From the NCBI GenBank assembly GCA_020632715.1, contig JACKFA010000010.1, forward strand, positions 15,328 to 79,327: DNA of 64,000 bases, in the 5' to 3' direction. Of the stretch, positions 32,379-50,897 are shown in pieces; the stretch's first letter is position 1; the number at the start of each line of letters is the position of its first letter. The position numbers were made by a program, and so were the translations under genes. The DNA comes from Deltaproteobacteria bacterium (lineage in GTDB: Bacteria > Myxococcota_A > UBA9042 > PHBI01). Below the pieces are notes generated by a model. The model ran no database searches. It was not told where the DNA came from and saw nothing but the letters and a program-made list of their open reading frames with translations.

Positions 32379-32449
32379 GGCGGGACCCTCCTCGGGGCCG
32401 GCGGGCGGGTTGGTCTGGCGCTGGGAGGCGGTCGTGGCGGTGCGGCGGC

Positions 32450-34286: not shown

Positions 34287-35369
34287 TCAGCGCACGTTCA
34301 CCCGCTTCGTCCGCGCCCGGTACACCTGCGCGAGCACCTGCGCGACCTGCTGGAAGAGGCTCTGCGGGATGGCCTTCCCCACCTTGACCGTCGACCACAG
34401 CGCCCGCGCGAGCGACCGGTTCTCCATGATCGGCACCCCGGCGCGCCGCGCGATCGCGCGGATGTGCACCGCCACCTCGTCGACCCCCTTCGCGACGACC
34501 GTCGGCGCCCGGTCCTTCCCGGGCTCGTACCGGAGCGCCACCGCGTAGTGCGTCGGGTTCGTGATGACGACCGTCGCCTTCGGCACCTCCGCCATCATCC
34601 GGTTCATCGACAGCTCGCGGTGCTTCTGCCGCCGCCGCGCCTTGATCTCCGGCCGCCCGTCCTCCTGCTCGTTCTCCTTCTTGACCTCCTCGCGCGTCAT
34701 CCGCAGCTGCTCGTTCAGCTGCTTCCGCTGCCAGAGGAAGTCGAGGACCGCGAGCACGCCCAGCACCGCGAGCGTCACCACCAGGAGCTTCGAGAGCTGC
34801 GCTCCCGCCACGCTCGCCGCCCCCTCGAGCGTCCCGAGCCCGAGCGCCGAGATCTTCGGCAGCACCTCCGCGAGCACGAGCGTCACCGCGAACGCCGTGA
34901 GCCCGAGCTTCCCGAGCGCGAGCCCGACGCGCACGGCCGCCTTCGTGGGCGAGGCGATGTCCGCGAGGCGCGACATCGGGTTCAGCCGGTTCCACTTGAA
35001 CCCGATGAGCTTCGCCGAGAACATGAGCCGCGTCTGCGCGAAGTACGCGATCAGCGTCGAGACGAGCAGGATCCCCATCAGCGCGAGCGTCGGCCCCGTC
35101 AGCGTGTGCAGGTGCGCCGCCACGACGTCGCCCAGCTCGAGCCGCGCGCCGCCCCCCTCGCCGACGTGGTCGATCGTCCACGCGAGCGCCCCCGCGAGCC
35201 CGCCGAGCAGCGCGTTCCCGGCCATCAGGAACGCGAACATCACCCCGAGCAGCTGTGCCGCGTTCGCGAGGTCCTTCGAGACCGCGACTCGCCCCTCTTC
35301 GCGAAACTCCCGCAGGCGTTTCGCGGTGGGTTCGAAAGTCCTCTCTTCTTTGGGGGTGTCGTCGGCCAT
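34287..35369 (-). CDS. flhB: Flagellar export apparatus protein FlhB
   Basis: N-terminus EERTFEPTAKRLREFREEGRVAVSKDL, four TM segments, and the NPTH autocleavage site (VVITNPTHYAVALRY). Confidence 0.9.
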   Translation of the reverse strand: MADDTPKEERTFEPTAKRLREFREEGRVAVSKDLANAAQLLGVMFAFLMAGNALLGGLAGALAWTIDHVGEGGGARLELGDVVAAHLHTLTGPTLALMGILLVSTLIAYFAQTRLMFSAKLIGFKWNRLNPMSRLADIASPTKAAVRVGLALGKLGLTAFAVTLVLAEVLPKISALGLGTLEGAASVAGAQLSKLLVVTLAVLGVLAVLDFLWQRKQLNEQLRMTREEVKKENEQEDGRPEIKARRRQKHRELSMNRMMAEVPKATVVITNPTHYAVALRYEPGKDRAPTVVAKGVDEVAVHIRAIARRAGVPIMENRSLARALWSTVKVGKAIPQSLFQQVAQVLAQVYRARTKRVNVR

Positions 35370-35375
35370 CGCGCG

Positions 35376-36167
35376 CTACGGCCCCCCGCCCGAGAGCTCG
35401 AGCATGCGCTCCGGGAGCGCGCGCACCTCGTGGTCGACGAACATCATGAGCGTGTCGCCCGCGAGCCCGAGCACCGCGAAGCCGCCCACCATCAGGATCC
35501 CGATGCCGATGCTGAAGATGTTCACCGACGGCACCACGCGCATCACGAAGCCGATCGCGACGTTCAGGAGCAGCGCCACGACCAGCACGGGCGCCGCCAT
35601 CAGCACCGCCGCGTGCACGATGTGCGTGACCGCGCCGCCGAGCGCGTCGAGCGACGGCAGCGAGAGCTCGGCCACCCCGACCGGGAAGAGCTGGAAGTGG
35701 TGGAAGAGGGTCTCGACGACGATCAGGTGCCCGCCGAACGCGAAGAACATGAGCCCGGCGATGAGCGAGAAGAGGCGCCCCGTCGCGAGCGGCGCCTCGC
35801 CGGCGGTCGTGTCGAAGAGGGTCGCGAGCGAGAGGCCCATCGAGAGGCCGACGAGGTCGCCGGCCATCTGCGCGGTGGCGGTCACCATGCGCACGGCCGT
35901 GCCGAGCGCCGCGCCGATGACGACCTCGCGCGCCGCCGCCGTGACGATCGTGAAGGGCGACGTCGGGAGCGGCACCGTCACGAGGCCGAGGGCCGAGTCC
36001 ATCGCGATCGTCAGCGCGAGCGCGAGCACGATCCGGATCCGCCCCGGCACCTGCCCGGTCCCGAAGTCGGGCATCGTCGCGAAGCACGTCCCGAGCCTGA
36101 GCAGCATGAGGATGCCGCCGTAGACCCACGGCGCCACGAGCCCGGACCAGAGGACGAGGTCGTTCAC
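35376..36167 (-). CDS. fliR: Flagellar export gate protein FliR
   Basis: 263-aa polytopic membrane protein with a GTG start, positioned immediately upstream of flhB and typical of FliR in length and hydrophobic pattern. Confidence 0.8.
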   Translation of the reverse strand: MNDLVLWSGLVAPWVYGGILMLLRLGTCFATMPDFGTGQVPGRIRIVLALALTIAMDSALGLVTVPLPTSPFTIVTAAAREVVIGAALGTAVRMVTATAQMAGDLVGLSMGLSLATLFDTTAGEAPLATGRLFSLIAGLMFFAFGGHLIVVETLFHHFQLFPVGVAELSLPSLDALGGAVTHIVHAAVLMAAPVLVVALLLNVAIGFVMRVVPSVNIFSIGIGILMVGGFAVLGLAGDTLMMFVDHEVRALPERMLELSGGGP

Positions 36168-36171
36168 GGGT

Positions 36172-36510
36172 TCAGCGGAGGCTCCGGATCCGCTCCGTCG
36201 CCGAGAGCACGTCCGAGAGGCGCACGCCGAACTTGTCGTTGACGATGACCGCCTCGCCGCGCGCGACGAGGTGGCCGTTCACGCGCACGTCGAGCGGCTC
36301 GCCGGCGATCTTGTCGAGCTCGATGACCGAGCCCTTCGCGAGGCGCAGGAGGTCGTGGATCCGCATCTTCGTGCGCCCGAGCTCGACCGTGACGCGCAGC
36401 GGCACGTCGAGCAGGAACTCGACCGAGCGCGCCGACGCCTCCTTCGGCTGCTTCGGGACGAGGTCGTCGATGAGCCCCGCGAGATCGTCGCCGCGTTCCT
36501 TGTCAGTCAT
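36172..36510 (-). CDS. fliN: Flagellar motor switch protein FliN (SpoA domain)
   Basis: C-terminal LDVPLRVTVELGRTKMRIHDLLRLAKGSVIELDKIAGEPLDVRVNGHLVARGEAVIVNDKFGVRL. Confidence 0.9.
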   Translation of the reverse strand: MTDKERGDDLAGLIDDLVPKQPKEASARSVEFLLDVPLRVTVELGRTKMRIHDLLRLAKGSVIELDKIAGEPLDVRVNGHLVARGEAVIVNDKFGVRLSDVLSATERIRSLR

Positions 36511-37561
36511 CTTCGGTCTCCTCGGGCTGCTCGTACTCGTCGAGCCCGATCATGGCGGTCAGGTCGATGGCCACGTTGCCGCGCTGCACCGTCGGGAAGC
36601 CGCGCAGCTTCGGCTCGTCCTCGATGTAGATCACGACCGGCTCGCTCGGGTCGCTGTCGAGCCGCAGCACCTGCCCCACCTCGAGCCCGAGCAGCTCCGA
36701 GACCTTCATCTCGCAGGAGCCGAGCAGCGCCCGCACGTGCACGGGCACGGGGTACAGGCTCTGGCGCATGAGCTCCATCTCCTGCGTCTCGGCCTTCAGG
36801 TGGTCGGGCGTGGCCGTGCGCGAGAGCTGGTCGCCGAACTGCGAGAGGTGCGAGAGCGGGAGGATGAGGCGCAGGATCCCGGAGACGTCGTTCCACTCGC
36901 ACTTCACCGAGGCGTCGACCATCGCCTCGCCGGGGGAGTAGAGCGCCGCGTGGCGCGGGTCGGTCGCGACGCGCACGACCTGCAGCGAGATCGGCGCGAC
37001 GTCGCTCCAGGCGTTCGAGAGCGCGCGCGAGAAGATGGCCGTCAGGTGGTGGATGACCCCCTGCTCGGTCGGCGTGAAGCCGCGCACGGCGAGGCCGCCG
37101 CGGATGGCGACCATGCCGCCCTGGCCGCCCATCAGGAGGTCGAGGAAGTGGAGCATCAGGTGCGGCTCCATCTCCACGATGATGGAGCAGCCGACGCCCA
37201 CGAGGTTCGCGATGATGAGCGCGGTCGGGACGTTCAGGTTCGCGTAGATCTCGGCGAAGCGCGTGTAGAGCACGGGCTCGGCGGCGAAGTAGCCCTCCTG
37301 GCCGACGGCGCGCCGGAACTCGCTCACGAGGTCGTGCGCGAAGCGCTCGTGGATGAGCTGGAGGCCGGGGAGGTCGTCCGTGCGGCGGCTCGTGCCGGCG
37401 ACGAGGTCGTAGCGCAGCACGATCGGATCGGCGTTCCCGCGCACCTCGGGCCCGTGGATCGACGCGCCGCGCTCGGGCACCCCCATGCGCAACATCTCCG
37501 CGATCGCCTCGGTCTCCTCGGCGGTCAAGCGGGTGTCGTAATCGGATCCGTCGCTGCTCAC
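36503..37561 (-). CDS. fliM: Flagellar motor switch protein FliM (start re-assigned to GTG 37561)
   Basis: FliM middle domain plus C-terminal SpoA-like VHVRALLGSCEMKVSELLGLEVGQVLRLD. N-terminal LTAEETEAIAEML resembles the CheY-P binding peptide. GGAGG lies 10 nt upstream of GTG 37561. The track's ATG at 37600 falls inside a sigma54 promoter. Confidence 0.85.
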   Translation of the reverse strand: MSSDGSDYDTRLTAEETEAIAEMLRMGVPERGASIHGPEVRGNADPIVLRYDLVAGTSRRTDDLPGLQLIHERFAHDLVSEFRRAVGQEGYFAAEPVLYTRFAEIYANLNVPTALIIANLVGVGCSIIVEMEPHLMLHFLDLLMGGQGGMVAIRGGLAVRGFTPTEQGVIHHLTAIFSRALSNAWSDVAPISLQVVRVATDPRHAALYSPGEAMVDASVKCEWNDVSGILRLILPLSHLSQFGDQLSRTATPDHLKAETQEMELMRQSLYPVPVHVRALLGSCEMKVSELLGLEVGQVLRLDSDPSEPVVIYIEDEPKLRGFPTVQRGNVAIDLTAMIGLDEYEQPEETEDD

Positions 37562-37589
37562 GTTCTCGGCGCCTCCTCGTGGCGTCCCG

Positions 37590-37604
37590 GCAACTTCCAT
37601 GCCA
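37590..37604 (-). promoter_or_regulatory. Sigma54 -24/-12 promoter TGGCATGGAAGTTGC for fliM-fliN-fliR-flhB
   Basis: The reverse complement of 37590-37604 matches TGGCACG-N4-TTGC at 14 of 15 defined positions with the correct GG-N10-GC spacing. It is followed by GGAGG and GTG 37561. Confidence 0.75.
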
Positions 37605-37667
37605 GCGCGGCTCGGGCCGCCCGGTCAAGATCGCGGCCCGCCCGGCCTCCGGCGCGTCGGGTCGGGA

Positions 37668-38723
37668 TCAGGCGTCGCCGCCGAGCGACGCCGCCTCGTA
37701 GGCCTCCTCCGTGAAGTCGCCGGTGATCGGCCGCCGCCGCAGCTTCTCGACGAGGGTCGTGCGGTTCAGGCCGAGGAGGTTCGCGGCGCGCGAGCGGTTG
37801 CCGTTCGCGCGGCACAGGGCCTCGCGGATGAGGTCGCGCTCGAGGCGATCGAGGGTGTCCTTCAGGACGAGGCCGCTCTCGGGCAGCTCGATGACGGGCG
37901 GGCCGCTCGCGGCGCCGGCGCGCGCGGGCGGGACGGCGCCGCGCTGCGAGAGCTTCCAGCGCACGTCGTCGCGGTCGATGAAGCCCTCCTCGCGGAGGAC
38001 GAGCACGCTCTGCACGACGTTCTCGAGCTCGCGGACGTTGCCGGGCCAGGTGTAGCGCTCGAGCTCGGCCATCGCCTCGTCGGTGAAGCCGTCGGCGTCG
38101 GAGTGGTTGGGGCCCGCGTGGAGCGCGAGGAAGTGGCGTGCGAGGGGCGCGATGTCCATCGGGCGGTCGCGCAGCGCCGGGAGCTCGATGCGGATGACGT
38201 CGAGGCGGAAGAAGAGGTCCTCGCGGAAGCGGCCGGCCTCGACGGCGGCGGGGAGATCGACGTTCGTCGCGGCGATGACGCGGAAGTTGGCGCGCTTCGG
38301 CTGCGAGCCGCCGAGCGGGGTGAAGGTCTTCTCCTGGAGGACGCGCAGGAGCTTCGGCTGGAGCTCGATCGGGAGCTCGCCGATCTCGTCGAGGAAGAGG
38401 GTGCCGCCGTCGGCGGCCTCGAGGCGGCCGACGCGGGTGCGGTCGGCGCCGGTGAAGGCGCCGCGGACGTGGCCGAAGAGCTCGCTCTCGAGGAGGTTCG
38501 CGGGGATGGCGCCGCAGTTGATGGCGACGAGGGGCCCGTCCGACCAGGGGCCGAGCGCGTGGATCCGGTGGACCACGTTCTCCTTGCCGGTGCCGCTCTC
38601 GCCGACGATGAGCGCCGGGACCGGGCTCCGGGCGACGCGCTCGAGGGAGCGCAGCACGGCCTGGAGCGGCGAGTCGGGGGCGCACACGATGTCGCGCAGC
38701 GGCGCGTCGAGTGGATGCGTCAT
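37668..38723 (-). CDS. Sigma54-dependent transcriptional activator (AAA+ plus Fis-type HTH), no N-terminal receiver or sensory domain
   Basis: Walker A GESGTGKE, GAFTGA loop ELFGHVRGAFTGA, Walker B LFLDEIGE, WPGNVRELEN, and C-terminal HTH NRSRAANLLGLNRTTLVEKL. The AAA+ core begins around residue 15. Confidence 0.9.
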   Translation of the reverse strand: MTHPLDAPLRDIVCAPDSPLQAVLRSLERVARSPVPALIVGESGTGKENVVHRIHALGPWSDGPLVAINCGAIPANLLESELFGHVRGAFTGADRTRVGRLEAADGGTLFLDEIGELPIELQPKLLRVLQEKTFTPLGGSQPKRANFRVIAATNVDLPAAVEAGRFREDLFFRLDVIRIELPALRDRPMDIAPLARHFLALHAGPNHSDADGFTDEAMAELERYTWPGNVRELENVVQSVLVLREEGFIDRDDVRWKLSQRGAVPPARAGAASGPPVIELPESGLVLKDTLDRLERDLIREALCRANGNRSRAANLLGLNRTTLVEKLRRRPITGDFTEEAYEAASLGGDA

Positions 38724-38875
38724 GGGGCGTCCGTCACGGGGGTCGAAGGGCCGCCGATCCGCATGGGCGGGGCGACAGCGATCGCTCGCATCGTTTCCGC
38801 GATCAGCCGCACCGTCAAAAATCGAGATCGGGTGTCAGGAAACCGGCACCCCGGGGCCGACTCGCGATCGTCAAC

Positions 38876-38928
38876 GCGCTGACGCCGGCTTCCCAGGCTC
38901 GTCAGCGCGTTGACGATCCGCGGGATAC
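38876..38928. promoter_or_regulatory. Perfect 19-bp inverted repeat GATCGTCAACGCGCTGACG-N15-CGTCAGCGCGTTGACGATC between the two divergent activator genes
   Basis: Read directly from the sequence. Both flanking genes diverge from it, so it is not a terminator. It lies 75-130 nt upstream of the sigma54-like element at 39003. Confidence 0.6.
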
Positions 38929-38983
38929 AAAAAGGCGATTACAGAACTTAACAAACCCTCAAGCCCTCACGTCGGCGCGCCGA

Positions 38984-40048
38984 ATGACGTCTCTCGGGGC
39001 CTTGGCACGCAACGTGCTCAGCGCACCCCTCGGACCTATGCGCCCAGAGCTCTCCCAGCGCCTCCCCGGAGGCAACGACACCGCAGAGGACGTGCTTCTC
39101 GATCCGCGAAGCGCCGCCATGCGGACCGTCATGCACCTCGCCCGCGAGGTCGCGAAGGGCGGCACGTCCGTCCTCCTCACGGGCGAGACCGGCACCGGCA
39201 AGGAGGTCCTCGCCCGCTACGTCCACGCCTGCTCGCCGCGCGCGAAGCGGCCGTTCGTCGCGCTCAACTGCGGCGCGCTGCCTGCGCAGCTCGTCGAGAG
39301 CGAGCTCTTCGGCCACGAGCGCGGCGCCTTCTCGGGCGCCATCGAGCGGCGCGTCGGCTACTTCGAGGCGGCGCACACGGGCACGCTCCTCCTCGACGAG
39401 GTGAGCGAGCTCCCGCAGGCGCTCCAGACGCGGCTCCTGCGCGTCCTCCAGGAGCGGCAGATCCAGCGCGTCGGCGCGAGCCGCCCGATCGACGTCGACG
39501 TGCGCGTCGTCGCCACGACGAACCGCGATCTGCGCGCCATGGTCGAGGCCGGCGAGTTCCGGAAGGACCTCTTCTATCGCCTGAACGTCTTCCCGATCGA
39601 GGTCCCGCCGCTGCGCGCGCGCAAGGACGACCTCGACGACCTCGTCGCGACCCTCCTCGGGCGCCTGCGACCGGGCCAGGATCCGCTCCCGGACCTCACC
39701 CTCGCGGCCCGCGAGCGCCTCCGTCGCCACGACTTCCCGGGCAACGTGCGCGAGCTCGCCAACCTCCTCGAGCGCGCGCTGATCCTCACGGGGGGCGACG
39801 GCCCGATCGACGCCGCGCACCTCCTGCTCGAGCCGCTCGCCGCCCCGGAGGACGCCGCGCCGCACGCCGGCGCGACCCTCGAGCACCTCGAGCGGCGGCA
39901 GATCCTCCGCGTCCTGTCGGACTGCGGCGGCAACCGCACCCACGCGTCGCGGCGGCTCGGGATCAGCCTCCGCACGCTCCGGAACAAGCTCCGCGACTAC
40001 CGCCACCACGGCGTCCCGATCCCCGAGGCCGCCGGCTCCGCGCGCTGA
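38984..40048 (+). CDS. Second sigma54-dependent activator (AAA+ plus HTH), no receiver domain; the start may be ATG 39038
   Basis: Walker A GETGTGKE, ELFGHERGAFSGA, LLLDEVSE, FPGNVRELAN, and HTH NRTHASRRLGISLRTLRNKL. Only about 30-45 residues precede the AAA+ core. Confidence 0.85.
   Translation: MTSLGALARNVLSAPLGPMRPELSQRLPGGNDTAEDVLLDPRSAAMRTVMHLAREVAKGGTSVLLTGETGTGKEVLARYVHACSPRAKRPFVALNCGALPAQLVESELFGHERGAFSGAIERRVGYFEAAHTGTLLLDEVSELPQALQTRLLRVLQERQIQRVGASRPIDVDVRVVATTNRDLRAMVEAGEFRKDLFYRLNVFPIEVPPLRARKDDLDDLVATLLGRLRPGQDPLPDLTLAARERLRRHDFPGNVRELANLLERALILTGGDGPIDAAHLLLEPLAAPEDAAPHAGATLEHLERRQILRVLSDCGGNRTHASRRLGISLRTLRNKLRDYRHHGVPIPEAAGSAR
39003..39017 (+). promoter_or_regulatory. Candidate sigma54 promoter TGGCACGCAACGTGC
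   Basis: Perfect -24 TGGCACG and correct GG-N10-GC spacing, with -12 GTGC rather than TTGC. It lies inside the 5' end of the longest ORF of the downstream activator, 21 nt before the in-frame ATG 39038. Confidence 0.35.
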
Positions 40049-40088
40049 CGCGCGGCGCCGGGAACAGAGAGAGAGAGAAGAGGCCGTC

Positions 40089-40535
40089 ATGTCCCTGACC
40101 AGCGACAACATCAACCTGACGCTCAAGGCCGCGCTCGACGTGCGCTACCAGCGTCAGGAGGTGCTCGCGAACAACGTCGCGAACGCCGACACCCCGGGCT
40201 TCCGCCCGGAGGACCTGGAGTTCGACGGGGTGCTGCAGCGCGAGATCGGCGGCCCCTCGCCCCTCGGCCACACCGACGGCGCCCACCTCGACGAGACGGG
40301 GCACCTCGGGATGGGGGCGCGCGCGAGCTTCGTCGGCGGCGCGGACGCCGGCGTCGCGCAGCAGGATCTGCGCGAGCGCCCCGATCGCCTCGACACGCTC
40401 GACGGCAACGGCGTCGACATGGACCGCGAGATGGCCCGGGTGGCCGACAACGCCATGCAATACAAGGCCGCGATGGAGGTCATGCGCCGTCGCGTCGGGA
40501 TCCTGAAGCTCGCCATCACGGACATGAGCCGCTGA
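40089..40535 (+). CDS. flgB: Flagellar proximal rod protein FlgB
   Basis: N-terminus RQEVLANNVANADTPGFRP and C-terminus DGNGVDMDREMARVADNAMQYKAAMEV. Purine-rich SD upstream. Confidence 0.9.
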   Translation: MSLTSDNINLTLKAALDVRYQRQEVLANNVANADTPGFRPEDLEFDGVLQREIGGPSPLGHTDGAHLDETGHLGMGARASFVGGADAGVAQQDLRERPDRLDTLDGNGVDMDREMARVADNAMQYKAAMEVMRRRVGILKLAITDMSR

Positions 40536-40568
40536 AGGTGACCGGGGACGCGAGGAGGAGGTGACGAC

Positions 40569-40976
40569 ATGTCGATGATCAAAGGTTTCGGGATCCTGTC
40601 GACCGGGATGAGCGCGCAGCGGACGCGCCTCGACGTCGTCAGCTCGAACCTCGCGAACGCGAACACGACGCGCACCGCCGAGGGCGGGCCGTACAAGCGG
40701 CAGATCCCCGTGTTCGAGAGCGTCGGCGAGGACCCGGACGGCGTCGGGCTCGGCGTGCAGGTCCAGAGCGTCGAGACCGACCCCACCGAGGGGCCCATCG
40801 TCTACGACCCCGGTCACCCCGACGCGGACGCGCAGGGCTACGTCCACCTGCCGAACGTGAACGTGGTCGAGGAGATGGTCGACATGATGACGGCCGCGCG
40901 CTCCTTCGAGGCGAACACGCAGGCGTTCCAGACGCTCCGCGACATGATCCAGCAGGCCATCAACCTCGGGAGGTAG
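40569..40976 (+). CDS. flgC: Flagellar proximal rod protein FlgC
   Basis: RLDVVSSNLANANTTRT and YVHLPNVNVVEEMVDMMTAARSFEANTQAF. Confidence 0.92.
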   Translation: MSMIKGFGILSTGMSAQRTRLDVVSSNLANANTTRTAEGGPYKRQIPVFESVGEDPDGVGLGVQVQSVETDPTEGPIVYDPGHPDADAQGYVHLPNVNVVEEMVDMMTAARSFEANTQAFQTLRDMIQQAINLGR

Positions 40977-40982
40977 GCGCTC

Positions 40983-41339
40983 ATGGCGACCATCGACGCA
41001 GTGACGAGCATGCTCGGGCGAGGCGCCGGCATCGACCCGAGCCAGGGCAAGCCCCCGGTCGACCAGGGGCGCGCCATCGCGGCGCCGGGGCTCACGCTCC
41101 CCGACGACGCCAAGGGCGACGGCGGCTTCGCGGGGGTGCTGGCGAAGGCGCTCGACGGCGTGAACGCCGTTCACGGGACGGCGGACGTGAAGGCCATGGA
41201 CATGGTCCAGGGCAAGGACGTGCCGATCCACGACGTGATGGCGGCGGTGAGCGAGGCGGAGATCGCCGTGCAGCTCACGACCGCGATCGCCTCGAAGGCG
41301 ATCGCCGCCTACCAGGAGATCTGGCGGATGGATGTGTAA
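40983..41339 (+). CDS. fliE: Flagellar hook-basal body protein FliE
   Basis: C-terminus IHDVMAAVSEAEIAVQLTTAIASKAIAAYQEIWRMDV. Size and position (after flgC) fit FliE. Confidence 0.88.
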   Translation: MATIDAVTSMLGRGAGIDPSQGKPPVDQGRAIAAPGLTLPDDAKGDGGFAGVLAKALDGVNAVHGTADVKAMDMVQGKDVPIHDVMAAVSEAEIAVQLTTAIASKAIAAYQEIWRMDV

Positions 41340-41375
41340 CGATGAGGCGAGACTTCGGGATGGTTCGATCCCGCC

Positions 41376-41452: not shown

Positions 41453-41494
41453 GTTACCGACGAGATCAGCTGAGCTAGGCCCGACGGAGAGACC

Positions 41495-43174
41495 ATGGCC
41501 GACGAGCCCACACAGAACGCGAACCCCACGCCCGAAGGCGGCGACCGCCCCGGCGGGATCGCCGGCCTGCGCCAGGCCTTCATGCGCCTCCCGCGCGAGC
41601 GGCGCTGGCTCATCGCGGGCGTCGCCGCGGCCGCGCTCGCCGGGCTCCTCTTCATCGTGATGGCCGGCGGGGGCGACGAGTACAAGACCGTCGCGCGCGG
41701 GCTCACCGCCGAGGACCTCGACGCCGCCACGAAGACCCTCGACGCGAAGAAGATCCCCTACAAGCTCGAGGACCAGAACGCCATCGCCGTCCCGCCCGAG
41801 CAGATCCACGAGGCGCGCCTCGCGCTCGCCGTCGGCACCATGCCGAGCGGCCACGTCGTCGGCTTCGAGATCTTCGACGAGGCGGAGATGGGCCGCAGCG
41901 CCTTCTCCGAGAAGGTGAACTACCACCGCGCGCTCGAGGGCGAGCTCGCGCGCACCATCCGCACCATCGAGGGCATCGATCGCGCGCGCGTCCACCTCGT
42001 CATCCCGGCGCAGCGCGTCTTCCGCGAGCTCGACGTCGAGCCGAGCGCCTCGGTCATCGTCTCGATGCACCCGGGCTTCGAGCTGAACCCGCGCCAGGCC
42101 GCCGCCATCCGCCAGCTCGTCGCCGGCGCCGTCGAGCGCCTGAAGCCGAACCAGGTCGCGATCGTGGACCAGTACGGCTCGATGCTCGCGCGCCCCGAGT
42201 CGGCCGACATGCTCGGCAACGCCAACTTCGAGCAGCAGTCCGACCTCGAGCGCCAGACCGAGCAGCGCGTCGTCTCGCTCCTCGAGCCGGTCGTCGGCGC
42301 GGGCAAGGTCCGCGCGCGCGTCGCCATCACGATGGACTACGCGCACGTCATCGAGACCAAGGAGACCTACAACCCCGACGGGCAGGTCGTCCGCAGCGAG
42401 CGCGAGCAGACCGAGAAGAGCGAGAACCTCGACGCCGGCGCCGGCCAGGGCGCGCCAGGCACCGCCTCGAACCTGCCGGCGCGCCCCGGCGCCCGGGGCA
42501 ACAACGCCGGCGGGAACCGCGCCTCCAAGGAGGCGACCGACACCATCCGCAACTACGACATCGACAAGAGCGTCGTCCGCCGCGAGAACCCGCTCCCGCG
42601 GGTCGAGAAGATGTCGGTCGCCGTGCTCGTGGACCAGGCCCCCGACGGCGCCGGCGGCGTGCGCCCGCGCACCGAGGAGGAGATCGCGCAGTACCAGGCC
42701 CTCGTGTCGCGCGCGGTCGGCATCGACGCGGCCCGCGGCGACCAGATCGAGGTCGTCTCCGTGGCCTTCGCGGCGCCCGAGAGCTTCGAGGAGCCCACGA
42801 CCGAGCCCGAGACGCCGGCGCCCTTCTACGAGAACCCGCTCATCCTCGCGATCGCGGGCGGCGGGCTCCTGCTCCTCATCCTGCTCGTGACGGTGCTCCT
42901 GTGGCTCCGCCGCCGGAAGAAGCGCCGCCAGGAGATCGCCGCCGCGTCGAAGGGCCTCGACCTCGTCATCGACGAGCCGATCGACCTCGACCCGTCGCAG
43001 GACGTGCTCGACCGTCGGAAGCGCATCACGGCGCTCCGCGAGCGCGCCGTGGAGCTCGCCAACGAGGACATCCGCCGCCTCGGCGTGGTCTTCGAGCACT
43101 GGTTCGAGCAGGCGCGCGTGGAGGCCGAGGAGGCCGCCGAGGCTGAGGAGAAGGAGCAGGAGGAGGCCGCCTGA
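41495..43174 (+). CDS. fliF: Flagellar MS-ring protein FliF
   Basis: N-terminal TM segment, then LDAKKIPYKLEDQNAIAVPPEQIHEARLALA, FSEKVNYHRALEGELARTI and RVHLVIP. Second TM segment and acidic C-terminus. Confidence 0.92.
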   Translation: MADEPTQNANPTPEGGDRPGGIAGLRQAFMRLPRERRWLIAGVAAAALAGLLFIVMAGGGDEYKTVARGLTAEDLDAATKTLDAKKIPYKLEDQNAIAVPPEQIHEARLALAVGTMPSGHVVGFEIFDEAEMGRSAFSEKVNYHRALEGELARTIRTIEGIDRARVHLVIPAQRVFRELDVEPSASVIVSMHPGFELNPRQAAAIRQLVAGAVERLKPNQVAIVDQYGSMLARPESADMLGNANFEQQSDLERQTEQRVVSLLEPVVGAGKVRARVAITMDYAHVIETKETYNPDGQVVRSEREQTEKSENLDAGAGQGAPGTASNLPARPGARGNNAGGNRASKEATDTIRNYDIDKSVVRRENPLPRVEKMSVAVLVDQAPDGAGGVRPRTEEEIAQYQALVSRAVGIDAARGDQIEVVSVAFAAPESFEEPTTEPETPAPFYENPLILAIAGGGLLLLILLVTVLLWLRRRKKRRQEIAAASKGLDLVIDEPIDLDPSQDVLDRRKRITALRERAVELANEDIRRLGVVFEHWFEQARVEAEEAAEAEEKEQEEAA

Positions 43175-44295
43175 TGAGCGCGAACCCCGCCCCGCAGAAG
43201 GAGCCGGCCGGCGACAAGGGCGCCGCGGCCGGCGGCGACAAGGGCGCCTCGGCCGCCGGGATCCCGGGGATGCCGTCGAAGGCGACGTCGTCCACCGAGC
43301 CCGAGGCGAAGGTCGAGATCCCGCCGATGCGGCGCGCGGCCATCGCGGTGCTGCTCCTCGGCGACGAGCTCGCGAAGAAGCTCTTCCGCCAGTTCCAGGC
43401 GACCGACGTGCGGAACCTGCTGCAGGCGGCGAACCGCCTGCGCGGCGTCACCGAGGACGAGGTGCTGACGGTCCTCGAGGACCTCGTGAACGAGCTCGAG
43501 GAGGGCGTCCCCGGCGTCTCCGGGCACGGGCACCGCATCGAGGAGGCGGCGGTCAGCGTCTTCGGCGCCGACCTCATCCGCGCCGTCGCGACGAAGGAGG
43601 TCGCCGGCATCGCGATGCACATCCACAACATCGCGAGCGAGAAGCCGGACCTCTTCGCGCGGACGCTCGCGAAGGAGCACCCGCAGACGGTCGCGGTCAT
43701 CCTCACGATGCTCCCGCCGGACGTCGGCGCGCGGGTGCTGCGCCACCTCCCGAAGGACATCAAGGTCGACGTGGTGCGCCGCGTCGCGCAGCTGCGGTCG
43801 GTGTCGTCGGCGGTGCTCGCCGACGTCACGGAGACCGTCGGGAAGGAGTTCAAGTCGCCCGAGAAGCACGGCCCCATCAACATCGACGGCATGGACATGG
43901 CCGTGAAGCTCCTGAAGGGGGTCGGGGCGGCCGACGAGCAGCGGATCCTCGAGGGGCTGTCCGAGGTCGACGGCGACATGACCGAGTCGATCAAGGCGAA
44001 GCTCTTCACGTTCGAGGACCTGAAGCTCCTCCACGACCGCGAGATCCAGACCCTCATGCGCGAGATCGACCAGCGCGTGCTGCCGGTCGCGCTCAAGAAC
44101 GCCTCGCCCGAGGTGCAGGCCAAGCTCCTCAACAACGTGTCCAAGCGCGCGGCGCAGATGCTCAAGGACGACATCGCCGCCATGGGGCCGACGACGCTCG
44201 CCCAGGTCGAGGCCGCGCAGGCGCAGATCATCGCGCAGGTCATGGCGCTGGCCGCCGAGGGCAAGGTCAACCCGCGGCCGGGTGACACCGTATGA
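43174..44295 (+). CDS. fliG: Flagellar motor switch protein FliG (with a ~50-aa Gly/Ala/Lys-rich N-terminal extension)
   Basis: RRAAIAVLLLGDELAKKLF, KEHPQTVAVILTMLPP, and C-terminal FTFEDLKLLHDREIQTLMREID...LKNASPEVQAKLLNNVSKRAAQMLKDDI. Confidence 0.92.
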   Translation: MSANPAPQKEPAGDKGAAAGGDKGASAAGIPGMPSKATSSTEPEAKVEIPPMRRAAIAVLLLGDELAKKLFRQFQATDVRNLLQAANRLRGVTEDEVLTVLEDLVNELEEGVPGVSGHGHRIEEAAVSVFGADLIRAVATKEVAGIAMHIHNIASEKPDLFARTLAKEHPQTVAVILTMLPPDVGARVLRHLPKDIKVDVVRRVAQLRSVSSAVLADVTETVGKEFKSPEKHGPINIDGMDMAVKLLKGVGAADEQRILEGLSEVDGDMTESIKAKLFTFEDLKLLHDREIQTLMREIDQRVLPVALKNASPEVQAKLLNNVSKRAAQMLKDDIAAMGPTTLAQVEAAQAQIIAQVMALAAEGKVNPRPGDTV

Positions 44296-45170
44296 CGAAG
44301 CCCTCGCCGACCCTCGACGTGAAGCCCTGGAGCTTCGGACAGCACGCGCCGTCCGAGCAGAAGCCGGGGTTCATGCGCGGGGGGAACCGCGAGCGCGTCG
44401 TCACCTGGGTGCCGGGCGGCGAGGTCACCGAGTCGCCGCCGCCCCCGCCCGCCGCGAAGGCCCCCGCGAAGCCGGCCGCCGCCGCGACCGGGAAGGGCGC
44501 CGCGCCCCCGCCGCCGGGTGGCGGCGCGAAGAGCGAGGCGCCAAAGCACTCGCCGGCCCCCGAGCCGCCCGAGGAGGAGGACGCCGCGCCGGTCGTCCCG
44601 CCGGGGTCGCTCATCGTCAGCGAGGCGGACCTCGAGGCGCGCGAGCAGGAGCTCGTGGACGTGCTGCGGGAGCCGTATCGCGCGGCCGCGCGCGACCTCA
44701 AGGGCGCGATCATCGAGCTCCAGCAGCGGCTCCACGAGGACCTCGTCGACCTCGCGGGGCGCTTCGCGCAGGCGCTCATCTACCGCGAGGTGCGCCTCGA
44801 CCGGGGCATCATGCTCGACATCGCGCACCGCGCGCTGCGCATGGCCGGCACGATGGAGCGCGTCGTCATCAAGTGCAGCGAGGAGGACGCGCCGGTCCTC
44901 CGCGAGGAGCTCGGCGACCTCGCGCGGAGCGAGGCGGGGCAGGCCGTCGAGGTCGTGGTGCGGCCGTCGGACGACATCGACGTCGGCGGGTGCCTGCTCA
45001 CGTTCGAGGGCGGGATCGTCGACGCGCGCAACGAGAAGCGCCTCGAGCGCCTGATGGAGGTCGTGAAGGCCGCCGTCTCCGACGCGCCGGTGGCCGAGGC
45101 CCACGGGAGCACGCACCCGCCGGCGCCGGCGCCGCCCGCCGCCGAGGAGCGCGAGGAGGGGCCGACGTGA
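44292..45170 (+). CDS. fliH: Flagellar assembly protein FliH (Pro/Ala-rich insert)
   Basis: Position between fliG and fliI with coupled starts (ATGA at the 5' end, GTGA at the 3' end). The C-terminal half LVDLAGRFAQALIYREV...VVVRPSDDIDVGGCLLTFEGGIVDA is typical of FliH. Confidence 0.8.
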   Translation: MTKPSPTLDVKPWSFGQHAPSEQKPGFMRGGNRERVVTWVPGGEVTESPPPPPAAKAPAKPAAAATGKGAAPPPPGGGAKSEAPKHSPAPEPPEEEDAAPVVPPGSLIVSEADLEAREQELVDVLREPYRAAARDLKGAIIELQQRLHEDLVDLAGRFAQALIYREVRLDRGIMLDIAHRALRMAGTMERVVIKCSEEDAPVLREELGDLARSEAGQAVEVVVRPSDDIDVGGCLLTFEGGIVDARNEKRLERLMEVVKAAVSDAPVAEAHGSTHPPAPAPPAAEEREEGPT

Positions 45171-46549: not shown

Positions 46550-47363
46550 GGATCGCGGATGGTGGGTGGCGCTCGTCGCGGTGGCGATCCTCGCCGGCGG
46601 CGTGTTCGCCGCGTCGCGGCTCGCGTTCGGCGAGGGGCCGAAGGACGGGCGGCCGGAGACGCCGCCGGTCATCGACAAGACGCCGACCGCGTCGGCGCCG
46701 GGCGCGAAGGCGGGCGGGGCGGCGACGACCGCGGCCGCGCCTGCGCCGCCGGGGCCCGTGACGCCGTCGGGCGCGGCGGTGGCGGCGGCGGTGGCGGACG
46801 ACAACGCGACGCCCGCGACGGCGGCGGCGCCGCCCGCGGTGCCGCTCGAGCAGAAGGCGGGGCCGACCAGGCTCTGGGCGCTCGACCTCGTGGAGCGCGA
46901 GGCGGCGCTGGCTGGTGAGAAGGAGGCGCTCGCGAAGGAGCAGGAGGCGCTCGCGGCGCGGGTCGCGGCGCTCGAGCTGCAGAACCGCGACCTCGAGGCG
47001 CGGAAGGCGCAGGTCGCGGACCTCGCGAAGGCGGTGGGGGCGCAGTGGGACGCGCAGGCGGCGCGGCTCACGACGCCGGACCCGAACGCGATCGTGCTCC
47101 CGGCGAACACGGTCGAGGCGAACGCGCAGCTCGACCTCGTCGCGAGCATCATCAAGAAGATGAAGCCGAAGGCGGCGGCGGAGCTCATGCAGACGTGGAA
47201 GGACCCGCTGCAGGTCGACATCCTCGGGCGGCTCCAGCCGCGCGTGTCGTCGGCCATCCTGAACGTCTACGACCCGACCATCGGCGGGCGCGTCACGACC
47301 GAGCTCGCGCGGCTCGGCCTGCCGACGCCCATCCCGGCGGTCGCGAAGGAGGGAGCGAAGTGA
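46539..47363 (+). CDS. MotE/YlxF/FlbB-family flagellar protein (TM, coiled coil, MgtE_N-like domain)
   Basis: N-terminal TM WWVALVAVAILAGGVFAA, coiled coil EREAALAGEKEALAKEQEALAARVAALELQNRDLEARKAQV, and C-terminal IIKKMKPKAAAELMQTW...ILGRLQPRVSSAIL. Its position between fliI and fliK matches B. subtilis ylxF. Confidence 0.6.
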   Translation: MRREDRGWWVALVAVAILAGGVFAASRLAFGEGPKDGRPETPPVIDKTPTASAPGAKAGGAATTAAAPAPPGPVTPSGAAVAAAVADDNATPATAAAPPAVPLEQKAGPTRLWALDLVEREAALAGEKEALAKEQEALAARVAALELQNRDLEARKAQVADLAKAVGAQWDAQAARLTTPDPNAIVLPANTVEANAQLDLVASIIKKMKPKAAAELMQTWKDPLQVDILGRLQPRVSSAILNVYDPTIGGRVTTELARLGLPTPIPAVAKEGAK

Positions 47364-48676
47364 TCCGAGGCGTTGGCCCCTTCTCCTCGATCCCGAAGGT
47401 CGACGTGGCGCTCCCCGAGCCGGTCTCGGCGCTCGGTGAGGCGTTCACGCTGCCCGACGACGCGCTCGACCCGCGCCCGGACGACGGCGACCGGCGCGAT
47501 CCCGACGGATCCCTGCTCGCGGGCGCGGCGCTCGGGCGACACGACGCCCAGGACGCGGCGCGGGCGGCGCGGCGCGACGGTCACGACGGCGTGGACGCGT
47601 CCGGCGGGCACCGGCGGCGCGGCGGGCGCGAGATGATCGCGCGGCCAGCCGAGGGCAGCGGCGATCCGGACGACGCGGCGCTGGCCGCGAAGAACGCGGC
47701 CGACAAGGCCACGCAGACGGTCGTCGCCGACGACGGCCTCGGCGGCGCCTTCGTGAGCGACGACGCGGCCCCGCCGCCGGCCCCGGAGGCGCCCGCGCGG
47801 GACGCGCGCGCGGCGGACGGCGAAGACCGCGCCGAGGCGCGGGGCGAGGGGCACAAGGTGGCGCACGGGGCGGCCGAGCGGCCGGTCCAGGCGCCGCCGG
47901 CCGAGGCGAAGGGCGACGGGAAGGGCGGCGACGGGCAAGGGCAGGCGCAGGCGCAGGCGCAGGGCAAGGACGCGGCCGCGGTCGACGCGGCGAAGAACGC
48001 GGGGACCGGCCCGCAGCAAGCGCAGTCGCAGGCGCAGGGCGGCACGGCGGGCGCGGCGCAGGCCGGGGCGCTGGGCGTTCCGGACGCCGGGAGCCTGCTC
48101 AGGCTCGCGGGCGCGGGCGGGAAGCCCGCGGGCGCGGGCGACGCGGCGTCGCGGCTCGTGGGGGTCGGCGAGATCGACCCGCTGCTCGGGCCGGACGCGA
48201 TGGGGAGCGCGGCGGCGCGGGGCGCGGCGGCGCAGAAGGTGGTCCCGGTGACGCCGGGGCAGCCGCTCGCGGATCAGCTCGCGGACGCCGTGCGCGACAT
48301 GGTGAACGGCGACGCGGGCGGGGACCTCATCCGCTTCGAGGCGAAGGACATCGGGCGCTTCACGGCGCTCGTGCAGCACGACGGGCGCGAGCTCCTCGTG
48401 CACCTGCGGGCCGACGACGCCGCGACGCGCGCGCTCCTCGAGCAGCGTCTGCCCGACGTGAAGGCGGCGCTCGAGCGGGCGGGGCTCGCGTCGGGCGGGG
48501 TCGACGTGCGGGCCGACGGCGGCGCGGGCGGCGGAAGTGAACGGCATTCACAGGGGCCGTCCGACGGCGCGGCGGGCGTCGCGGGGGCGCCCGGGGCGCG
48601 GCGCGGCGGGGCGCGGCACGCGGTGGTCGACGGGGCGAGCGGGGCGGAGCCGGGGCGGCTCCACATCATCGCGTAG
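47360..48676 (+). CDS. fliK: Flagellar hook-length control protein FliK
   Basis: Low-complexity Ala/Gly/Gln/Asp-rich N-terminal two-thirds. C-terminal Flg_hook-like LIRFEAKDIGRFTALVQHDGRELLVHLRADDAATRALLEQRLPDVKAALERAGL. The GTG start overlaps the upstream stop. Confidence 0.75.
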   Translation: MIRGVGPFSSIPKVDVALPEPVSALGEAFTLPDDALDPRPDDGDRRDPDGSLLAGAALGRHDAQDAARAARRDGHDGVDASGGHRRRGGREMIARPAEGSGDPDDAALAAKNAADKATQTVVADDGLGGAFVSDDAAPPPAPEAPARDARAADGEDRAEARGEGHKVAHGAAERPVQAPPAEAKGDGKGGDGQGQAQAQAQGKDAAAVDAAKNAGTGPQQAQSQAQGGTAGAAQAGALGVPDAGSLLRLAGAGGKPAGAGDAASRLVGVGEIDPLLGPDAMGSAAARGAAAQKVVPVTPGQPLADQLADAVRDMVNGDAGGDLIRFEAKDIGRFTALVQHDGRELLVHLRADDAATRALLEQRLPDVKAALERAGLASGGVDVRADGGAGGGSERHSQGPSDGAAGVAGAPGARRGGARHAVVDGASGAEPGRLHIIA

Positions 48677-48706
48677 GCGAGAGACACGGAGAGGGGAGGG
48701 GACGAC

Positions 48707-49501
48707 ATGGCGGACATCAGCAGCGTGGCGCAGTCGCCGTACGCGCCGTCGACGACGACGCAGACGACGTCGACGCCGAACGGCACGATCGGCAAGGACG
48801 ACTTCATGAAGCTGCTCGTGGCGCAGCTCTCGCACCAGGACCCGCTCGAGCCGAGCGACCCGTCCCAGTTCGTGAGCCAGCTCTCGCAGTTCAGCTCGCT
48901 CGAGCAGCTCGTGAACATGAAGGAGGGGCTCGACCTCCTCGCGATCACGGAGACGGCCGGCACGAGCGCGCAGATGGTGTCGTTCATCGGCAAGACCGTC
49001 GAGTTCGACGGCGTGGGCGTGCCCTGGAAGGAGGGCGGGACGCCGGCGGTCGTGAACTGGGAGACGACGAAGGACGCCGCGAAGGTCACGGTGACGGTGA
49101 CCGACAGCAAGGGCAGCGTCGTGCGGAAGGACGTGCTCGGCGAGGCGAACGCCGGGGCGCACTCGTACCAGTTCGACGGGCTCGACGATCAGCGGAAGGC
49201 GCTCCCGGACGGCACCTACAGCGTGACGATCACGGCCGAGACCGTCGATGGGGACGCGATCCCGGTCACGCAGAAGAGCACGGGCGTCGTGACCGGCGTC
49301 ACGTTCGCGAACGGCTACCCGCAGCTGATGCTCGCGGACGGCCGCACCATCGGGCTCGCGCAGGTCATCCAGATCCTCGACGGCGCGCTGGCCGCGGCGG
49401 CCGCGCAGCCGGCGGCGGAGGCGGAGCCCGTGGCGGAGCCGGCCGCGAACCCCGAGCCGCACTCGGGCGCGAGCGCGGAGGAGCCGTTCGAGCGCCTGTG
49501 A
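48707..49501 (+). CDS. flgD: Flagellar hook capping/assembly protein FlgD
   Basis: IGKDDFMKLLVAQLSHQDPLEPSDPSQFVSQLSQFSSLEQLVNM, followed by a FlgD Ig-like C-terminal part. Confidence 0.92.
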   Translation: MADISSVAQSPYAPSTTTQTTSTPNGTIGKDDFMKLLVAQLSHQDPLEPSDPSQFVSQLSQFSSLEQLVNMKEGLDLLAITETAGTSAQMVSFIGKTVEFDGVGVPWKEGGTPAVVNWETTKDAAKVTVTVTDSKGSVVRKDVLGEANAGAHSYQFDGLDDQRKALPDGTYSVTITAETVDGDAIPVTQKSTGVVTGVTFANGYPQLMLADGRTIGLAQVIQILDGALAAAAAQPAAEAEPVAEPAANPEPHSGASAEEPFERL

Positions 49502-49616
49502 GCGTGGGCGTCGCGCCCGCGCGGATCGAGTCACACACACACATCGCTAGAAGAGCCGCAAAGCACACTCACCGTCCGCTAATCGGACCGCATCGCAGCA
49601 CCCAGGGGGGGACCTC

Positions 49617-50897
49617 ATGAGCATCTTCTCGTCGCTCTACGTCGGCATGTCGGGCATGCGCACCAACGAAGGCGCGATCAGCGTCATCGGCAACAACATC
49701 GCCAACGTGAACACGGTCGGCTTCAAGGCGAGCCGCGCGGTCTTCGCGGACATCCTGAGCCAGACGATCCTCGGCTCGGCCGGCGCGACGCAGCAGGGGC
49801 AGGGCGCCGCGCTCGCCGCGGTGCAGCGCCTGGTCACCCAGGGGGCGCTGCTCGGGACGAACGTCACGACGGACCTCGCCATCAACGGCGACGGCTACTT
49901 CATCGTCGGCGAGGACCCGGGCGGCCACCAGTACACGCGCAACGGGCAGCTCCAGATCGACGAGAACGGCTACCTGACGACGGTCGAGGGGCTGCGCCTC
50001 CAGGGGTACGCGGCGACGGACGGCGTGCTCGCGACGCGCCTCTCGAGCCTCGAGGTCAACAGTATCCAGGCGCCGCCGCTCGCGACGACCGAGATCGCGA
50101 TGGACGTGCAGCTGAACCGCGCCGACTTCGAGCCGCTGAACGCCGTCTTCGACGTCAACGACCCCGAGGGGACCTCGCAGTACCAGCAGTCGATCACGGT
50201 CTACGACTCGCTCGGCGAGGCGCATCAGGTCGAGGTCTACTTCACGCAGACGTCGCCCGGTCAGTGGGAGTGGAACGCGGTGGTCCCGCAGGGCGACATC
50301 GACGGGACCGACACCCGGGACGGCACGGTGGTCGCGGCCGGGTCGCTGGTCTTCGACGAGCAGGGGAACCTGCAGACGGAGAACCAGAGCCAGTCGACGG
50401 TGCAGTTCTTCGGCGCGGCGCCGCAGGACCTCACGTTCGACTTCGGCGAGGCCATCGACGACGGCGGCGACGGCTCGGGCTCCTCGTCCTACGCGGCCAC
50501 GAGCTCGCTCAACTTCGTGAACCAGAACGGCTACGGGGTGGGCACGCTCAGCTACCTCGAGATCGACCCCGACGGGAACATCACGGGGACGTTCACGAAC
50601 GGCCGCGAGCAGCTCCTCGGGCGCCTCGCGCTCGCGCGCTTCCAGGCGCCGGACCAGCTGAACGCCCTCGGCGACAACCTCTTCGCGGAGAGCGAGATGA
50701 GCGGCGAGCCGATCATCGGCGTCGCCAACACGGGCGGGCGCGGGGAGATCTTCAGCGGCGCCCTCGAGCAGAGCACCGTCGACCTCACGAACGAGTTCAC
50801 GCAGCTCATCACGGCGCAGCGCGGCTTCCAGGCGGCGAGCCGCACGATCACGACGGCCGACGAGATGCTCGTCGAGGTCGTGAACTTGAAGCGGTAG
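49617..50897 (+). CDS. flgE: Flagellar hook protein FlgE
   Basis: N-terminus MSIFSSLYVGMSGMRTNEGAISVIGNNIANVNTVGFK and C-terminus LEQSTVDLTNEFTQLITAQRGFQAASRTITTADEML. Confidence 0.93.
   Translation: MSIFSSLYVGMSGMRTNEGAISVIGNNIANVNTVGFKASRAVFADILSQTILGSAGATQQGQGAALAAVQRLVTQGALLGTNVTTDLAINGDGYFIVGEDPGGHQYTRNGQLQIDENGYLTTVEGLRLQGYAATDGVLATRLSSLEVNSIQAPPLATTEIAMDVQLNRADFEPLNAVFDVNDPEGTSQYQQSITVYDSLGEAHQVEVYFTQTSPGQWEWNAVVPQGDIDGTDTRDGTVVAAGSLVFDEQGNLQTENQSQSTVQFFGAAPQDLTFDFGEAIDDGGDGSGSSSYAATSSLNFVNQNGYGVGTLSYLEIDPDGNITGTFTNGREQLLGRLALARFQAPDQLNALGDNLFAESEMSGEPIIGVANTGGRGEIFSGALEQSTVDLTNEFTQLITAQRGFQAASRTITTADEMLVEVVNLKR

Follow-up and report, generated by a model that had tools for sequence, protein, structure and literature searches.

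Does an uncultured myxobacterium that carries the core genes of a flagellum also build one? The question is raised by the 64,000-nt stretch of DNA analysed here (the window), in which positions 34287-50897 form an unbroken run of flagellar genes, comprising 17 intact, uninterrupted open reading frames (ORFs) in two divergent operons. Our answer, drawn from sequence comparison, is that this run is probably one block (block 1) of a genuine and maintained flagellar system of the Myxococcota, that the remaining genes (block 2) have been separated from it and most likely lie elsewhere in the genome, and that the cell most likely assembles a functional flagellum.

Genes were called with a codon-usage caller trained on the window, and all called genes were then scanned with Pfam; NCBIfam models were also run. 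Across the run, E-values reach 1e-105 at best and the majority of profile matches are near full length. In order of transcription, the minus-strand operon consists of the following genes (lengths in amino acids, aa):

37668-38723, minus strand: sigma-54 enhancer-binding protein A (EBP-A), 351 aa, with AAA+ and helix-turn-helix (HTH) domains; PF00158 (E 5e-65), PF25601 and PF02954
36503-37561, minus strand: fliM, C-ring switch protein, 352 aa, with an alternative ATG at 37600; PF02154 and PF01052
36172-36510, minus strand: fliN, C-ring protein, 112 aa, overlapping fliM by 8 nt; PF01052 (E 5e-26)
35376-36167, minus strand: fliR, export-gate subunit, 263 aa; PF01311 (E 2.8e-49), best NCBIfam match TIGR01400 (fliR), below its cut-off
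34287-35369, minus strand: flhB, export-gate switch protein, 360 aa, last gene of the operon; PF01312 (E 5.8e-105), full length

The plus-strand operon, again in order of transcription, consists of:

about 39038-40048, plus strand: sigma-54 enhancer-binding protein B (EBP-B), about 336 aa, with AAA+ and HTH domains; PF00158 (E 2e-68) and PF02954; start uncertain, the longest ORF running from 38711
40089-40535, plus strand: flgB, proximal rod; PF00460
40569-40976, plus strand: flgC, proximal rod; PF00460 and PF06429
40983-41339, plus strand: fliE, rod adaptor; PF02049 (E 2.6e-20)
41495-43174, plus strand: fliF, MS ring, 559 aa; PF01514 and PF08345, TIGR00206 at 257.7 bits against a cut-off of 129.75
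43174-44295, plus strand: fliG, rotor/switch protein, 373 aa; FliG_N, FliG_M and FliG_C all found
44292-45170, plus strand: fliH, ATPase regulator; PF02108
45167-46549, plus strand: fliI, export ATPase, 460 aa, with a GTG start overlapping the fliH stop; PF00006 (E 2e-84) and PF18269
46539-47363, plus strand: membrane-anchored coiled-coil protein, 274 aa, with an FlbB/MotE/YlxF-like C-terminus; weak matches to MgtE_N (E 0.03) and to the FlbB collar protein (E 9e-7, below cut-off)
47360-48676, plus strand: fliK, hook-length control, 438 aa; PF02120 at the C-terminus (E 8e-9, above cut-off)
48707-49501, plus strand: flgD, hook cap; PF03963, PF13860 and PF13861
49617-50897, plus strand: flgE, hook, 426 aa, the last flagellar gene in the window; PF00460, PF22692, PF07559 and PF06429

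These strong matches bear out an earlier note on this DNA, which had described two divergent operons free of internal stops and had named and placed their genes; the translational coupling that it described corresponds to overlaps of 1-11 nt at six junctions (fliM/fliN, fliF/fliG, fliG/fliH, fliH/fliI, fliI/motE-like and motE-like/fliK). Its single plus-strand activator needs correction, as two sigma-54 activators are present, one heading each operon. All six of the axial proteins FlgB, FlgC, FliE, FlgE, FlgD and FliK score above the Pfam gathering cut-off, and FliI lies above the cut-off of the FliI/YscN subfamily model TIGR01026, with flagellar clade 1 as its best equivalog. Functional motifs are intact throughout: FlhB has the autocleavage motif NPTH at residue 271, FliI has Walker A (AGAGVGKS) and Walker B (LLLMDS) motifs, FliG keeps its EHPQ motif and the charged K..DD residues of its C-terminal helix, and the activators carry GAFTGA (EBP-A) and the variant GAFSGA (EBP-B). 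The 352-aa form of FliM agrees with the gene call in the closest relative, L090 (from three Logan runs; relatives are given here by our own labels), and its N-terminus contains LTAEETEAIAEML, which we infer to resemble a CheY-binding peptide. The fliR gene directly follows fliN, with no fliO, fliP or fliQ between them, and the Pfam scans of all called genes recognised no separate fliJ in the window. The 274-aa FlbB/MotE-like gene has orthologues at the same position in L002, L003 and L007, and an MgtE_N match is also recorded for the L002 orthologue. Upstream of flgB, a purine tract, cagagagagagagaagagg (40066-40084), adjoins the start codon and could be an extended ribosome-binding region.

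Together, these genes would contribute the MS ring (FliF), the C ring and switch (FliG, FliM and FliN), the proximal rod (FlgB, FlgC and FliE), part of the export gate (FliR and FlhB), the ATPase complex (FliH and FliI), and the hook with its assembly factors (FlgE, FlgD and FliK). An injectisome had to be excluded as the product of such a cluster, because Myxococcales carry reduced loci of non-flagellar type III secretion systems (NF-T3SS) (Abby and Rocha 2012, PMC3459982; PMC12248157). The 'Myxo' NF-T3SS comes from the same phylum and shares a homologous export core with the window cluster (SctU/FlhB, SctT/FliR, SctN/FliI, SctJ/FliF and SctQ/FliN; PMC3459982), and FlhB, FliR and FliI match NCBIfam Sct family models as well as flagellar ones. 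The remaining gene content speaks against an NF-T3SS of either the injectisome or the 'Myxo' kind. The motility-specific genes flgB, flgC, fliE, flgD, flgE, fliK, fliG and fliM are all there, whereas the 'Myxo' system lacks rod, hook, FliG, FliM and FliK genes; FliF passes its flagellar equivalog cut-off, whereas the SctJ model reaches only 58.9 bits against its own cut-off of 161.95; and Pfam finds no secretin, needle or SctD domain in any window gene. Gene content thus refutes this alternative, to which we give practically no credence, and the earlier assignment to a flagellum, based on rod, hook, MS-ring and C-ring genes, stands.

To judge from its sequence, the host is an uncultured member of the Myxococcota, because a neighbouring protein of 1841 aa (13690-19215, minus strand) carries both MYXO-CTERM (TIGR03901) and the myxo cysteine-rich repeat (TIGR02232/DUF4215) in the NCBIfam search, and because the named proteins among the nearest FliI and FlhB homologues all come from metagenome-assembled genomes (MAGs) labelled Myxococcota, Myxococcales or Deltaproteobacteria. 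The same two observations confirm the myxobacterial hallmarks that had been noticed earlier; the 64 kb window, which has a G+C content of about 74% throughout, contains no rRNA or ribosomal marker genes. A FliI scan of the GTDB species representatives returned three close relatives, 'Myxococcota bacterium STL-MYX26' and two MAGs named 'Deltaproteobacteria bacterium', the remainder being 77 distant phyla. In JGI, ENA, Logan and NCBI assemblies we found about 26 FliI clusters (at least 73% identity) and about 31 FlhB clusters (at least 52%); the cluster type is common in metagenomes. The organism itself recurs in two other assemblies as fragments of 7.7 kb (GCA_020430565.1, an NCBI MAG that encodes an identical FliF protein) and 5.9 kb (Logan SRR12358676), both within the span of the window, and a 1257-aa PKD protein used to extend the sequence past the window end matched no exact record.

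Flagellar genes in such a host might have arrived recently, as an island from a non-myxobacterial donor. The flanks of the cluster vary between relatives, and genes of mobile or variable type (eCIS_core, PKD and nucleotidyltransferase) lie nearby, as would be expected of an acquired island. Composition, homology and layout all point the other way. The cluster is compositionally native, because its G+C content at third codon positions (GC3, 0.979 against 0.973 in the flanks) and its codon frequencies (r = 0.94) match those of the flanking genes. The closest FliI homologues, at 82-54% identity, are, where named, all from MAGs of Myxococcota, Myxococcales or Deltaproteobacteria, whereas identity outside this myxobacterial group is at most 53% (SAR324, Desulfobacteraceae, Gemmatimonadota and others). 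Further, the 643 kb JGI contig L003 keeps the layout although its proteins are down to 35-65% identity, and this conservation despite divergence indicates long residence in the lineage. The suggestion of a recent acquisition is therefore disfavoured by native composition, a conserved layout and diverged sequences in a clade with only Myxococcota as named members, and we regard it as very improbable.

The layout of block 1 is the same gene for gene, both activators and the FlbB/MotE-like gene included, in all six relatives whose sequence extends far enough: L002 (OW818691.1, a complete genome of 9.29 Mb), L003, L007, L008, L011 (JAXLYZ010000064.1) and L012. Across the relatives' superclusters (OW818691.1, WYBB01000200.1 'PRO4', JAXLYZ010000064.1 'STL-MYX26', and JGI and Logan contigs), block 1 content, gene order and the positions of sigma-54 promoters are identical, at protein identities of 50-93%. 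In L011, several flagellar genes at 5000-7000 align in fragments only (for example, 149 of the 559 aa of FliF), which probably reflects indel errors of the assembly rather than pseudogenes.

The conserved promoter positions bear on how the two operons would be controlled. Between them, in the window as in L002, L003, L008, L011 and L012, two paralogous activators stand head to head, with EBP-A kept upstream of fliM in each of these five relatives; L002 has an additional 184-aa gene upstream of the second activator. No Response_reg or sensor domain was found in EBP-A or EBP-B with Pfam or NCBIfam, the AAA+ domain begins at about residue 18-24, and the relatives are alike in this. The best NCBIfam match of EBP-B is to Caulobacter FlbD, below cut-off and over model positions 123-449 only. 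Three sites were located near the operon starts:

37589-37604, minus strand: candidate sigma-54 (-24/-12) promoter of the fliM operon, TGGCATGGAAGTTGCC, with 2 mismatches to TGGCAC-N5-TTGCW
39003-39018, plus strand: candidate sigma-54 promoter of the plus-strand operon, TGGCACGCAACGTGCT, with 1 mismatch to the consensus, just upstream of EBP-B
38866-38918, no strand: perfect 19-nt inverted repeat, GATCGTCAACGCGCTGACG / CGTCAGCGCGTTGACGATC, its arms separated by a 15-nt spacer; lies in the divergent control region, some 100 nt upstream of the second candidate promoter

The first candidate lies 28 nt upstream of the fliM start and is identical in L090, and sites with zero mismatches occupy the same place in L008 and L003; sites comparable to the second lie upstream of the orthologous activator in L007, L008, L011, L012 and L003. 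We propose that the two receiver-less activators probably drive both operons from these -24/-12 promoters. No rpoN gene is among the genes of the window. The inverted repeat is possibly an activator-binding site; its sequence is not conserved in the relatives, and we rejected it as a conserved activator site on that ground.

Sigma-54-dependent regulators of flagellar genes include FlbD of Caulobacter, FlgR of Campylobacter and Helicobacter, and FlrA/FleQ of Vibrio and Pseudomonas. Like these, the window proteins are GAFTGA-type AAA+ activators beside flagellar operons with -24/-12-like sites. FlbD and FlgR carry a receiver domain for phosphorylation control, whereas both window activators lack it and score below every equivalog cut-off. 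Paired receiver-less activators are represented by FleQ/FleT of Rhodobacter and HrpR/HrpS of Pseudomonas syringae, which the window pair recalls; that the two activators work through pairing or as a hetero-oligomer is our conjecture from this analogy.

Downstream of flgE, the window departs from its relatives. In L002, L003, L007 and L008, a convergent series motB-motA-(flbD)-x-fliS-fliD-fliC directly follows flgE, and flgL and flgK come next in L007 and L008. Other contigs continue the series: L094 carries flgH-flgF-flgG-flgA-flgI-x-x-flgN-flgK-flgL-fliC-fliD, and L098 carries fliO-fliP-fliQ-flhA-flhF-flhG-fliA-x-flgH-flgF-flgG. Pieced together, block 2 reads fliO-fliP-fliQ-flhA-flhF-flhG-fliA-flgH-flgF-flgG-flgA-flgI-flgN-flgK-flgL-fliC-fliD, an order assembled from several related contigs and present whole in no single relative. 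With the contigs combined, the flagellar gene set of the clade appears complete, in a supercluster of an estimated 45 kb or so. Export-gate genes are split in this clade, with fliR-flhB placed beside fliMN in block 1 (window 35376-36510) and fliOPQ-flhA in block 2 (L098 583-4821). Past flhB, the relatives have unrelated genes that differ from one to another. In the window, what follows flgE is instead:

50898-64000, no strand: synteny break, with eCIS_core/DUF4157, PKD-domain and unknown proteins in place of the motB-motA-(flbD)-fliS-fliD-fliC of the relatives

Block 2 is thus absent where it would normally stand, the gap after flgE measuring at least 13.1 kb and reaching the end of the window. 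Exactly where the relatives have motB...fliC, an eCIS_core (DUF4157) protein is followed by several PKD-domain proteins (50989-55650, plus strand; 59006-62779, minus strand), which may be variable cargo or a toxin-like insertion. At this same position the relatives show two stator types: one has a MotA with a MotA_N domain, accompanied by FlbD (L002 16705-17737 and L008 15533-16606), and the other a MotA without FlbD (L003 17068-17838, L007 12563-13330, L102 and L103). With a MotA identity of only about 32% between one type and the other, a replacement of the stator within the clade is suggested.

The window is not alone in having its flgE separated from motB. In L011, about 5 kb of unrelated genes lie between flgE and motB, and in L012 flgE is followed by a response regulator and a kinase. 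In a neighbour-joining tree of six proteins, the window groups with L007 as its sister, and L012 with L008; because the sisters L007 and L008 keep the adjacency of flgE and motB, this adjacency is ancestral and the separations are independent, derived events. The flgE/motB junction is recombination-prone in the clade, and separation at it is recurrent and derived and is not evidence of loss. We therefore read the window as a case in which an insertion or rearrangement after flgE would have split block 1 from block 2, with block 2, elsewhere in the genome, supplying the remaining genes of a working flagellum.

Four results weigh against this account. First, a tblastn search of the window with 30-odd block 2 proteins of the relatives (MotA/B, FlbD, FliS, FliD, FliC, FlgL/K/N/I/A/H/F/G, FliO/P/Q, FlhA/F/G and FliA) found no block 2 gene; the only matches were paralogous ones, of FlgF/G on FlgE, FlgC and FlgB. 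Pfam and tblastn together find neither FliP, FliQ, FlhA or FliJ, next to the FliR, FlhB, FliH and FliI that are there, nor flagellin, FliD, FlgK/L, MotA/B, FlgF/G or FlgI/H, so that the earlier list of genes absent from the window was correct. Second, a profile search built on the FliD proteins of four relatives gave no match traceable to the window organism in a search that was not exhaustive; the most plausible matches, P0248, P0256 and P0255, belong to other samples. This negative carries no weight, because the search also missed the FliD proteins of L008 and L002, both of which were in its own query. Third, the window overall shows no enrichment of sigma-54 sites (113 against 122 expected), so the promoter case rests on position and conservation. 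Fourth, the measure of selection given below is limited to minus-strand genes, because the L090 contig ends inside activator A, and it is blind to a very recent loss of function.

The break invites the view that block 2, with its filament, cap, stator, P/L-ring, fliOPQ and flhA genes, has been lost, and that block 1 is a recently disabled remnant in which lesions have not yet accumulated. In its favour are the exact position of the synteny break after flgE, followed by at least 13 kb of unrelated genes, and the failure to retrieve a FliD attributable to the window organism, which, as said, is uninformative. Against it, all 17 genes are intact, with their functional motifs, and the rearranged junction of L011 shows motB retained. 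Selection data also argue against it. L090 is 90, 93, 91 and 87% identical to the window in FliM, FliN, FliR and FlhB, respectively, with the partial activator A also within 87-93%, and for fliM, fliN, fliR, flhB and the partial activator A, the Nei-Gojobori method gives proportions of nonsynonymous (pN) and synonymous (pS) differences of 0.036-0.075 and 0.20-0.32, with ratios of the corresponding substitution rates (dN/dS) of 0.13-0.23, from 0.13 in fliR to 0.23 in flhB; with a GC3 of about 98%, any error in dS would be towards too low a value. Nor was acceleration of the window lineage evident in Tajima relative-rate tests (three outgroups), in which window-specific replacements numbered 14 against 13, 7 against 10, and 27 against 23 (p 0.47-0.85). 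Ratios against L007, L008, L011, L012 and L002 (0.3-1.2) were discarded as saturated, because at this GC3 pS plateaus at about 0.35-0.55. The selection, rate and motif data make a long-standing relic unlikely, as do the sigma-54 promoter sites kept at orthologous positions and the native codon usage, and the earlier suggestion of a relic on its way to decay loses ground to the low dN/dS of the minus-strand genes and the equal rates. Even a recently disabled remnant we consider unlikely.

A function other than motility would likewise be consistent with purifying selection on block 1; in this reading, a machine of basal body and hook only, its filament, stator and ring genes lost, serves protein export or another role, as proposed for Buchnera. 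The absence of block 2 from the window and the reduced type III secretion variants known in Myxococcales (PMC3459982) are in keeping with such repurposing. If it were true, this would be a Buchnera-like flagellum-derived machine in a free-living myxobacterium, and a living intermediate on the path from flagellum to secretion. A machine of this kind would have to export, however, and FliP, FliQ and FlhA, which are indispensable for export, are missing from the window along with the filament genes. Because these three proteins are required for any flagellar-type export, and because the window genes are under selection, there must be other flagellar loci if the window genes are to function at all. 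Several features point to motility in particular: the charges of the FliG torque helix and the CheY-binding-like N-terminus of FliM are kept, a chemotaxis-type cluster lies 25 kb away, and filament, cap and stator genes directly follow flgE in four relatives. Repurposing is, in our estimation, quite improbable, and a maintained flagellum with its second block elsewhere is the reading that we carry forward.

In its organisation, the cluster resembles flagellar systems already known. The fla/che operon of Bacillus subtilis has the order flgB-flgC-fliE-fliF-fliG-fliH-fliI-(fliJ)-ylxF-fliK-flgD-flgE; it continues co-linearly through fliL-fliM-fliY-cheY-fliO/P/Q/R-flhB-flhA and is controlled by sigma-A and sigma-D, with no sigma-54 activators. 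With this operon order as background, the earlier observation that the plus-strand operon mirrors fla/che from flgB to flgE holds good and extends to the YlxF/MotE-like gene between fliI and fliK, the 274-aa gene of the window occupying the position of fliJ-ylxF. The likeness ends at flgE, where the B. subtilis operon runs on and that of the window stops, its fliMN-fliR-flhB genes being divergent.

Within the phylum, a flagellar cluster of 55.7 kb (Adeh_1338-1397) is known from Anaeromyxobacter dehalogenans 2CP-C, swimming was seen in strain K, and a flagellated myxobacterial ancestor has been argued for (Thomas et al. 2008, PMC2330069). The Anaeromyxobacter cluster, likewise from a very GC-rich member of the Myxococcota, shares with the window the order flgB-flgC...flgD-flgE, the lack of a recognisable fliJ and chemotaxis genes nearby, and it has flbD-motA-motB after flgE, as do the relatives L002 and L008. 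It differs in being a single co-linear cluster, in which fliL-fliM-fliN-fliO-fliP-fliQ-fliR-flhB-flhA-flhF-flhG are contiguous and co-linear with flgB...flgE-flbD-motAB (Table S5), its contiguous export-gate genes (Adeh_1363-1358) being split in the clade of the window. By contrast, the window has fliM-fliN-fliR-flhB in a divergent operon that lacks fliL, fliO, fliP, fliQ and flhA, two receiver-less activators between the operons, and a recognisable fliK. The best 120 FliI matches, which reach down to about 51% identity, include no named Anaeromyxobacter protein.

The earlier note had found a flagellar cluster surprising here on the premise that myxobacteria are non-flagellated. This premise is outdated, given Anaeromyxobacter (PMC2330069), MAGs of Myxococcota from Zodletone that encode flagellar assembly (10.1101/2021.07.06.451402), a seamount study in which flagellum and pilus genes, flagellins included, were among the most highly expressed across Myxococcota and Bdellovibrionota MAGs (PMC11937823), and the uncultured relatives that carry the same cluster. 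The expression reported by the seamount study, in situ and from uncultured predatory bacteria, also favours a working flagellum.

Other genes of the window touch the flagellar system less directly. At its start (1-8717, plus strand) stands the chemotaxis-type cluster mentioned above:

3-512, plus strand: C-terminus of a methyl-accepting chemotaxis protein (MCP)
807-2642, plus strand: CheA-CheW-receiver hybrid
2639-3712, plus strand: CheB
3712-5796 and 5793-8717, plus strand: two hybrid histidine kinases with three receiver domains each

Its output may be either the flagellar switch or a pilus/gliding pathway. Proteins of 453, 448 and 692 aa (31092-33796, minus strand; 28351-30429, plus strand) have no match in Pfam or NCBIfam. 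The 453- and 448-aa genes (31092-33796) stand downstream of flhB in the same orientation, where L090 has Big_2, Big_5 and RCC1 proteins instead; with no family match and with other genes in their place in L090, both were rejected as flagellar genes.

Flagellar genes are already documented in the Myxococcota, and the locus of the window is a further example. Its clade departs only modestly in gene organisation from the pattern of Anaeromyxobacter and fla/che, and the sole distinctive feature of the window is the derived synteny break after flgE. The split export-gate genes, the paired receiver-less sigma-54 activators and the recombination-prone flgE/motB junction may be of interest for the evolution and regulation of flagella and do not overturn current understanding. 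The locus is a well-documented addition to the evidence against regarding flagella as foreign to the Myxococcota, and it belongs to a broad, mostly uncultured clade with a conserved flagellar gene system that looks complete when related contigs are combined; it is the textbook myxobacteria, such as Myxococcus and Sorangium, that have probably lost their flagella.

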